From: Escherichia coli
Lineage (GTDB): Bacteria; Pseudomonadota; Gammaproteobacteria; Enterobacterales; Enterobacteriaceae
Reading direction: 5' to 3' (one strand)
DNA: 64,000 bases
NCBI RefSeq assembly: GCF_050320075.1
Contig: NZ_CP190018.1
Under the pieces are notes generated by a model. That model saw only the letters and a list, made by a program, of their open reading frames with translations, did no database searches and was not told where the DNA came from. This document shows, one piece after another, positions 4,112-52,606 of this stretch (positions are counted from its first letter, which is position 1; every line of letters starts with the position of its first letter). The position numbers and the translations under genes are program-made.

Positions 4112-5238
<1,127 letters not shown>

Positions 5239-5440
5239 TTAATTCGTAAAACGTGCTACCGATCACATTAAGAAATCAGCGCTTATTTTTTCGCTCCCCG
5301 GCATTACGCAATGCGCAGCGAACTCAGGCATACATCAAGCATAGAGAGGGATTGCAGTTTGCAGCAATCCCTCTTTGCAGACCTTTAATCCGCTGACCAT
5401 AGGCGCTAACATAGCGCCTCATTTTTTTGCGGGTGATGAT

Positions 5441-6388
5441 ATGCGTGTGTTATTGGCACCGATGGAGGGAGTGCTTGACTCTCTGGTGCGTGAATTGCTG
5501 ACCGAAGTTAACGACTACGATCTGTGCATCACCGAGTTTGTCCGCGTGGTGGATCAACTGCTGCCGGTAAAAGTCTTTCATCGCATTTGCCCTGAGCTAC
5601 AAAACGCCAGCCGGACACCATCTGGTACGCTGGTGCGCGTGCAGTTGTTAGGTCAGTTCCCACAATGGCTGGCAGAGAACGCCGCCCGTGCGGTGGAGTT
5701 AGGTTCCTGGGGCGTGGATCTCAATTGCGGCTGCCCGTCGAAAACGGTTAACGGTAGCGGCGGCGGGGCGACGTTACTCAAAGATCCTGAACTCATCTAC
5801 CAGGGTGCAAAAGCGATGCGTGAAGCTGTACCGGCGCATTTGCCCGTCAGCGTGAAAGTGCGTCTGGGCTGGGACAGCGGTGAGAAGAAATTTGAAATCG
5901 CCGATGCGGTTCAACAGGCTGGCGCTACGGAGCTGGTGGTGCATGGGCGGACGAAAGAGCAGGGTTACCGCGCGGAGCATATTGACTGGCAGGCGATTGG
6001 CGATATTCGCCAGCGGCTGAATATTCCGGTGATTGCCAACGGTGAAATCTGGGACTGGCAGAGCGCGCAACAATGCATGGCGATCAGCGGCTGCGACGCA
6101 GTGATGATTGGTCGCGGGGCGCTCAATATTCCCAACCTGAGCCGGGTGGTAAAATATAACGAACCGCGAATGCCGTGGCCGGAGGTGGTTGCTTTGCTGC
6201 AAAAATATACCCGTCTGGAAAAGCAGGGCGATACCGGGTTATATCACGTTGCGCGGATTAAACAGTGGTTGAGTTATTTGCGTAAAGAATACGATGAAGC
6301 AACGGAATTATTTCAGCATGTTCGGGTGTTGAATAATTCCCCTGATATTGCAAGGGCTATTCAGGCAATTGATATCGAGAAACTCTAA
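5441..6388 (+). CDS. dusC: tRNA-dihydrouridine(16) synthase DusC
   Basis: 315-aa product from ATG 5441 [33 protein letters not shown]... (FMN-dependent Dus fold); the longer ORF from 5375 is rejected as start. Confidence 0.9.
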
Positions 6389-6760
6389 AAAACCATAGTG
6401 ATGTTTTTTGACAATGTGTTAGCTCTTTATCAATAGGCCGCACGGTTGTTTGGTGGCGTCAAAATTGCCGAGGCGTTCCCTGAAGGCCGGGGCAGCCCAC
6501 ATGGATGTGGGCTGAGGGCGCGTTTTACAGGGATGTTACCTCGCGCCCGACCCGGTAGCCGTAAGGGATAAGCCGAGGGCACCGCGCAGCGGCGATTTTG
6601 TTCGCCAGAGCCCGGGGGTGCAGGGGGCGGCGGCGATTGGCCGCCCCCTGCGCGCTCCTTGCGCCAGTGATTATATGAAGCAATGCACATGACAGGAGCG
6701 CAACAGGATGAGAGACTGAAATATTCTCGTTATTTTCGGACCTGATGACATTAATTAATT

Positions 6761-47384: not shown

Positions 47385-47416
47385 TTTGCCACCCTGGTTT
47401 TTTAATCGGATTTAGA

Positions 47417-47456
47417 AAGCTGAAATCATTCGTGTGAATGATTTCAGCTTTTTTAT
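47417..47456 (+). terminator. Intrinsic terminator after yehE
   Basis: AAGCTGAAATCATTC-GTGT-GAATGATTTCAGCTT perfect 15-bp stem followed by TTTTTT. Confidence 0.6.
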
Positions 47457-52577: not shown

Positions 52578-52606
52578 TTCCCCCTCATGATGAGGGGGCT
52601 TTTTTT
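52578..52606. terminator. Bidirectional terminator between convergent yehA and rcnB
   Basis: CCCCCTCATGATGAGGGGG hairpin followed by TTTTTTT; T-run overlaps rcnB stop. Confidence 0.6.

Follow-up and report, generated by a model that had tools for sequence, protein, structure and literature searches.

The dusC promoter of Escherichia coli has the shape of an intrinsic terminator and probably carries the orphaned terminator of the mhb operon

The DNA analysed here, hereafter the window, is a 64,000-nucleotide stretch of Escherichia coli contig NZ_CP190018.1 (assembly GCF_050320075.1), and it contains at 5203-5440 a spacer of 238 bp flanked by two divergent genes. On one side dusC, which encodes tRNA-dihydrouridine(16) synthase, occupies 5441-6388 on the + strand with its ATG at 5441; on the other, yohJ starts at 5202 on the - strand. 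The spacer is identical to that of K-12 MG1655 at 238 of 238 positions, and K-12 coordinates are converted here as K-12 position = 2235826 minus window position. A putative Shine-Dalgarno sequence, GGGTGA, lies at 5431-5436, 4 nt 5' of the ATG. Upstream of dusC the + strand holds a single open reading frame (5253-5396, 47 aa, GTG start), for which no conservation was found outside Escherichia. The dusC frame can be extended to a TTG at 5375 (337 aa, adding 5375-5440); we consider this extension, which would cross the promoter and the second of the two hairpins described below, to be spurious because the start peptide of DusC is conserved and transcription begins at 5419.

On the yohJ side of the spacer, SMRT-Cappable-seq reported a yohJ-yohK-cdd transcript, labelled as a novel operon, with a single transcription start site (TSS) at K-12 2230602, which corresponds to window position 5224 on the - strand; co-transcription of cdd with yohJK is therefore possible, besides transcription from its own promoter. 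Just upstream of this TSS, and overlapping the yohJ -10 element TATGAT (5231-5236), the - strand sequence AATTGTATGATGAAT (5227-5241) matches all high-information positions of the published YieP motif atTTGTaTGAcaAAT, a location that fits the reported repression of yohJK by YieP. In addition, a Footprint-seq preprint gives a CRP site for dusC/yohJ, aaTGTGAtcggtaGCACGttt, on the yohJ strand at 5249-5269. With its core centred ~36 bp upstream of the mapped start of yohJK, the site lies closer to the TSS than class II sites usually do.

Between these elements and dusC lie two hairpins, both non-random: the 111-nt stretch that contains them has a fold z-score of -5.0 on the + strand and -4.9 on the - strand (RNAfold against 200 dinucleotide shuffles). 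RNAfold places the upstream hairpin, hairpin 1, at 5343-5376 on the + strand, where 5343-5355 pairs with 5364-5376 to form a 13-bp stem with one G.U pair and an 8-nt loop; folded alone, it is drawn with 12 pairs at -20.6 kcal/mol. The first-pass annotation was right about the existence of this hairpin and one base off in placing it at 5348-5373, as the arms AGGGATTGC and GCAATCCCT occupy 5347-5355 and 5364-5372. In the whole 64-kb window only three places, of which hairpin 1 is one, carry a perfect inverted repeat with arms of 11 bp or more and a loop no longer than 10 nt; 20 shuffles gave a mean of 0.05. The other two lie at 47416-47451 (16-bp stem, 4-nt loop) and, in the dusC-yohP spacer, at 6620-6651 (GC-rich 12-bp stem, GGGGGCGGC...GCCGCCCCC). 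The centre of hairpin 1 is ~60 bp upstream of the dusC TSS, no U-tract follows it on either strand, and the Reg-Seq mutational scan lists no feature there, though it falls within the construct.

Hairpin 1 is contained in a single-copy segment of 106 bp (5277-5382). Of 5426 E. coli genomes 4917 have this segment, which among the loci that we fetched occurs in Escherichia only. Other Escherichia clades carry the segment with one or two mismatches in a spacer that is 35 bp longer. In ~9% of E. coli it is replaced by the mhb island, and mhb+ O157:H7 has only the 3' arm of hairpin 1. A CytR-like reading of the TTGCAG repeats of hairpin 1 was rejected, as the site lies ~136 bp upstream of the yohJ TSS and is not adjacent to the CRP site, and as nothing speaks for it. 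Also rejected were the segment as a remnant of the mhb island (the sole blastn-short match was the 16-nt CTTTAATCCGCTGACC beside dusC), the hairpin or segment as a dispersed repeat (E. coli genomes, like the window, have one copy), and the hairpin as a YieP site, the YieP motif being located elsewhere, at 5227-5241. Our guess is that a quasi-palindrome at a recombination junction is just as likely an account of hairpin 1 as a regulatory site.

Hairpin 2, AGGCGCTA-ACA-TAGCGCCT, lies at 5401-5419 on the + strand and consists of an 8-bp stem, in which 5 of the 8 pairs are G-C, and a 3-nt loop, ACA, with a stability of -11.6 kcal/mol. The dinucleotide CA separates the stem from a run of seven T (5422-5428, hereafter the T7 tract), which has the form of a terminator U-tract on the + strand and ends exactly 12 nt before the ATG at 5441. 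Hairpin 2 is the sole terminator-like site on the + strand between 4700 and 6000, and in the whole window it shares with just one other + strand site a perfect stem of at least 7 bp with at least six T behind it. The second, at 52580-52606 (CCCCCTCATGATGAGGGGG then CTTTTTTT), is the only other perfect + strand hairpin with a T7 in the window and is of ordinary terminator form. An Rfam search of 4900-5800 with E-values up to 10 gave sub-threshold chance matches only, none of them on the hairpins. The position of hairpin 2, the 12 bp between its T7 tract and the dusC start codon and its description as terminator-like, all of which the first-pass annotation had given, hold: it is a stable, GC-rich stem-loop followed by a U-rich tract on the coding strand. 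An intrinsic terminator would also be expected to close a co-directional transcription unit; no such unit precedes hairpin 2 in the window, whereas one does in mhb+ E. coli, and a co-directional upstream gene is present in 34 of 60 related loci.

Published data place the dusC promoter on top of hairpin 2. SMRT-Cappable-seq, which captures 5' triphosphate ends, gives a single TSS for b2140 at K-12 2230407 on the reverse strand, which is window position 5419 on the + strand (+/-1 to 2 nt). This is the T that closes the hairpin 2 stem as the last base of its 3' arm. EcoCyc lists a different TSS (Raghavan 2011) at K-12 2230395, that is 5431, and so the two published sites are 12 nt apart, both at or past the 3' edge of hairpin 2. 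The Reg-Seq mutational scan, which takes the EcoCyc TSS as its position 0, covers -115 to +45 (window 5316-5476) in 10 growth conditions. It detected an activator-like '-35' block at -48 to -42 (5383-5389) and a '-10' block from -30 or -26 to -18 (5401 or 5405 to 5413), mutations in which lower expression, and it gives dusC an RNAP index of 92, compared to 103-104 at canonical promoters. The RNA polymerase site is thereby placed ~11 bp upstream of where the EcoCyc TSS predicts it. Within these blocks we recognise a -35 hexamer, TTTAAT (5384-5389), in conserved cTTTcAA columns of up to 2.0 bits, and a -10 hexamer, TAACAT (5407-5412), in and beside the loop of hairpin 2. The 17-bp spacer between them, which ends in the 5' arm of hairpin 2, is within the 16-18 bp of sigma-70 promoters, and position 5419 is the 7th nt past the -10, where 6-9 are allowed. 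A GC-rich discriminator, AGCGCCTC (5413-5420, 6/8 G/C), largely coincides with the 3' arm of the hairpin. A simple promoter scan found no sigma-70 sites in 4700-6000; it missed the dusC promoter because the match to consensus is only 7/12. We regard the promoter elements and the TSS as demonstrated, together with the conservation pattern and the island polymorphism described below. As the EcoCyc site is 12 nt downstream of the Cappable-seq TSS and disagrees with the polymerase position found by Reg-Seq, the evidence favours 5419, and the EcoCyc annotation probably needs correcting. Transcription from 5419 gives a leader of 22 nt, UCAUUUUUUUGCGGGUGAUGAU-AUG, made up of the T7 tract, now at +4 to +10 of the dusC mRNA, and the Shine-Dalgarno sequence.

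To examine the conservation of this arrangement, 80 Enterobacterales loci encoding DusC were fetched. The promoter-hairpin block was present just upstream of dusC in 61 of them, which with the window gives an ungapped alignment of 62 loci, 54 of them distinct. Invariant or nearly so are the TT of the -35, the T-A-n-n-A-T of the -10, the G-C-G-C-.-T-C of the discriminator and the first four to five T of the run. In the -10, T1, A2 and T6 are invariant and A5 reaches 1.7 bits, whereas positions 3-4 vary freely (AC, CC, TG, CT, TC), as in a sigma-70 hexamer. In the discriminator, five of the eight columns never vary and the remaining three reach 1.0-1.6 bits, and this holds also in loci whose 5' arm does not complement it; the 5' arm itself carries only 0.5-1.6 bits. 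All 62 block-bearing loci, with or without the hairpin, retain a T-run of 5-8. When the stem was counted as pairs over 42 distinct sequences, 79.6% of the cells were paired; both sides had changed in 3 of 378 cells, which lends no support to compensatory pairing, and four of the nine stem pairs depart through unpaired cells only. As the 3' arm is nearly invariant without compensatory change, it is fixed as promoter sequence and not as a pairing partner. A different hairpin is present in E. albertii (locus L007, 60-141), where CCTCCGGC-TAT-GCCGGAGG and then ATATTTATTT form a terminator-like structure directly before dusC, 5' of the conserved TTTGCGGGTGATGATATG; the contig ends 141 nt upstream.

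A co-directional upstream unit is found in a minority of E. coli. In about 9% of complete E. coli genomes, the match to the spacer is confined to the 75 bp nearest yohJ. In these genomes, O157:H7 included, a ~6.2-kb mhbR-mhbTDHIM cluster for 3-hydroxybenzoate/gentisate lies between yohJ and dusC, and it encodes a LysR regulator, MhbT, gentisate 1,2-dioxygenase, a FAH-family hydrolase, maleylpyruvate/maleylacetoacetate isomerase and 3-hydroxybenzoate 6-monooxygenase. The five-gene operon is co-directional with dusC. The same hairpin 2 and T7 tract lie between mhbM and dusC as the last structure after the operon, and hairpin 2 is 50-190 nt from the stop codon of the last co-directional upstream gene. 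The right-hand junctions of the island are of at least three kinds (5277-5400; loci L003, L008 and L084): homology to the window resumes at the hairpin 2 stem in mhb+ strain CEC01302, at the -35 in E69 and within the hairpin 1 loop in O157:H7 TR01. In mhb+ E. coli a REP-like palindrome, CCCCTCGCCCCTTCGGGAGAGGGTTAGGGTGAGGG, separates the stop codon of the monooxygenase gene from the dusC promoter (L003 5470-5585, - strand; L084 330-400). The order yohJ-mhb-dusC also occurs in Citrobacter, Salmonella, Klebsiella, Raoultella, Kluyvera, Pseudocitrobacter and Enterobacter species. In mhb+ genera, too, the hairpin comes after the stop codon of mhbM. Since the mhb proteins are 80-97% identical, broadly within the range of the flanking genes, the patchy distribution of mhb looks like repeated loss.

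The integrity of the hairpin follows the orientation of the upstream gene. A perfect 9/9 stem is found in 22 of the 34 loci with a co-directional upstream gene and in 4 of the 26 with a divergent one, all four of which are Escherichia. The median stem dG is -16.7 kcal/mol with a co-directional neighbour and -8.4 kcal/mol with a divergent one (Mann-Whitney p = 2e-4, or 0.017 on distinct sequences, kinship being ignored in both). In Citrobacter the stem is perfect in 7/7 mhb+ loci, whereas 5/5 mhb- loci share a G-to-A break in the 5' arm, and Buttiauxella retains a perfect hairpin behind a gene for a DEAD-box helicase. There are counter-examples: Enterobacter and Leclercia loci with a co-directional M24-peptidase gene form only 6/9 pairs, and Klebsiella pneumoniae and Franconibacter form 8/9 with a divergent neighbour. 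Our reading is that the 5' arm is kept where transcription arrives from upstream and drifts otherwise, with the promoter half constant throughout.

Taken together, we believe that 5384-5428 is the sigma-70 core promoter of dusC, that it is also shaped as an intrinsic terminator, and that this is the terminator of the mhb operon, orphaned in the window; we consider this account probable. Hairpin 2 and the U-tract would act on RNA polymerase arriving from upstream. Polymerase leaving the upstream operon would be halted at the +1 of the promoter, preventing both read-through into dusC and occlusion of its promoter. The conserved arrangement in mhb+ genomes suggests that hairpin 2 terminates mhb transcripts, and the CA between stem and U-tract in E. 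coli should weaken that termination. Those parts of two published datasets that we covered contain no match: no 3' end in the dusC region is among the entries examined in the 3' end tables of Adams et al., and neither dusC nor its coordinates are among those examined in the Cappable-seq supplement (PMC4782308). In the window mhb is absent and the upstream neighbour, yohJ, is divergent, and therefore the terminator is an orphan here. That it has been kept intact would be due partly to half of it being promoter and partly to the polymorphism still segregating in E. coli. The first-pass annotation had suggested, as one option, a terminator for an upstream transcript; this was correct in an evolutionary sense, for the mhb+ relatives, and does not apply to the window itself, which has no co-directional upstream gene.

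Several observations count against this account. Besides the counter-examples to the orientation trend, the CA between stem and U-tract and the poor match of the promoter to consensus, there is the disagreement between the published start sites, 5419 and 5431. Another is a repressor-like stretch in the Reg-Seq data, at -43 to -16 (5388-5415), which an overlap of promoter and terminator does not explain by itself. This signal, lying over the spacer and the 5' arm, could reflect an operator, relief from the hairpin, or up-mutations such as those that create an extended -10. If it reflects an operator, a dimeric repressor would bind the palindrome AGGCGCTA-ACA-TAGCGCCT over the -10, and the potential of this sequence to form a hairpin would be a by-product of dyad symmetry. 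Reg-Seq indeed classes dusC as simple repression, with a 'repressor' site at -35 to -20 (5396-5411) that forms part of the merged stretch, and the 8-bp dyad is perfect. However, mass spectrometry in the same study recovered no transcription factor, and up-mutations in a GC-rich spacer can give a repressor-like signal; C5404T, for example, would yield the TG of an extended -10. Furthermore, most genera whose upstream gene is divergent have a disrupted dyad but retain the promoter half, which links the symmetry to upstream transcription rather than to a regulator of dusC. We consider an operator unlikely.

A further possibility is that the spacer encodes a short, unannotated + strand RNA of ~50-190 nt, resembling an sRNA, which would start within 5205-5400, run through hairpin 1 and stop at hairpin 2 and the U7. 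Two strong hairpins with a U7 tail do look like the anatomy of an sRNA, genomic SELEX shows RpoD holoenzyme binding to the spacer and puts a predicted + strand promoter at 5205-5234, and the size selection of SMRT-Cappable-seq would be expected to miss short RNAs. Against this, no Rfam family matches, no TSS has been reported in the region, and the promoter scan finds no consensus promoter there. The absence of a dusC-region 3' end among the Adams et al. entries examined points the same way, non-conclusively, and the 5277-5382 segment, which such an RNA would include, is limited to Escherichia and missing from 9% of E. coli. In our view such an RNA is quite improbable.

The first-pass annotation had placed the structure inside the dusC leader and raised the possibility of an attenuator. 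On that reading, transcripts from a promoter upstream of 5340 would mostly end at the hairpin and U7, 12 nt before the ATG. In favour of this, frd-ampC is a precedent in which the terminator of an upstream operon serves as an attenuator, and at dusC a structure of terminator form does lie on the coding strand. The genomic SELEX paper, moreover, proposes a promoter, TCAACA-18-CATCAT, at 5205-5234. Start-site mapping had been named as what could refute this idea, and the published maps provide it. With the promoter elements at 5383-5413, the only 5' triphosphate TSS at 5419, the EcoCyc TSS at 5431 and no Reg-Seq feature downstream of -6 (5425), transcription begins at the 3' edge of the hairpin and the structure does not lie downstream of the TSS in a 5' untranslated region. 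Hairpin 2 is promoter DNA outside the dusC mRNA, and therefore it cannot attenuate dusC. In addition, the ~22-nt leader is too short for alternative structures or a leader peptide, and it holds no antiterminator, leader reading frame or ligand domain that Rfam would match; many genera also have the promoter motif without the hairpin. An attenuator is thus refuted by these maps, and we give it next to no chance.

The locus corrects a tempting misreading: what looks like a textbook terminator 12 nt 5' of a start codon is mostly promoter DNA. Scans for a hairpin with a T-run can therefore flag promoters that combine a GC-rich discriminator with a T-rich initial transcribed region. The case is a compact one, in which a terminator and a promoter share roughly 30 bp, and it offers an example of half an element decaying, with the 5' arm eroding after loss of the upstream operon while the promoter half stays fixed. 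For annotation, the yohJ-dusC spacer is a site at which the mhb operon is present in some E. coli and absent from others, and 5419 is the supported dusC TSS in place of 5431.

Comparison with known systems places the promoter half beside two groups. GC-rich discriminators are characteristic of rrnB P1-type promoters, which are under stringent or growth-rate control. The dusC discriminator, AGCGCCTC, resembles that of rrnB P1, GCGCCACC, in being GC-rich over 6-8 nt, depending on the +1, and dusC likewise belongs to the translation apparatus; unlike rrnB P1, it has a weak -35 and a weak -10. The discriminator suggests that dusC is under growth-rate or ppGpp control. This fits one transcriptome study in which dusC falls in the growth-rate-dependent down-regulated group together with ribosomal protein genes and fis. 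The second group comprises promoters that start just before a T-run.

The promoters of pyrBI, codBA and upp, studied by Turnbough, are subject to UTP-sensitive reiterative transcription, which calls for a run of at least three T among the first transcribed bases. In dusC, with T7 at +4 to +10, the T-run follows 1-3 nt after the start, as it does in these promoters ((T)CATTTTTTTG in dusC, GATTTTTTG in codBA, GATTTTTTTTG in upp). In contrast to them, dusC is not a gene of pyrimidine metabolism, and a start at T5419 leaves a 3-nt anchor before the run. The T-run and the discriminator of this dual-use cassette might conceivably make initiation at dusC sensitive to nucleotide pools, through UTP-dependent reiterative transcription or start-site switching of the codBA/upp type, through ppGpp, or through both. 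We rate this as a long shot. If true, the synthesis of an enzyme that modifies uridine in tRNA would be coupled to the supply of UTP and to growth rate, and the 12-nt disagreement between the published start sites could reflect poorly mapping slippage products.

The terminator half shares with other enterobacterial intrinsic terminators a GC-rich stem of 8-9 bp, a short loop and seven U, and in mhb+ genomes a location 50-190 nt past the last stop codon. It differs in that the dusC site in the window has no co-directional upstream gene, that its loop and 3' arm double as -10 and discriminator, and that E. coli has CA between the stem and the U-tract. A parallel is the junction of frd and ampC in E. 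coli, where, as reportedly described by Grundstrom and Jaurin in 1982, the frd terminator overlaps the ampC attenuator. At both junctions two co-directional units share one hairpin and its U-tract. At ampC, however, the promoter is upstream and the hairpin is in the leader, whereas at dusC the promoter is inside the hairpin and transcription starts at its 3' edge. The overlap at dusC is, as far as we could find, previously undescribed. It is not a new kind of element: both the sigma-70 promoter and the intrinsic terminator that overlap here are ordinary.
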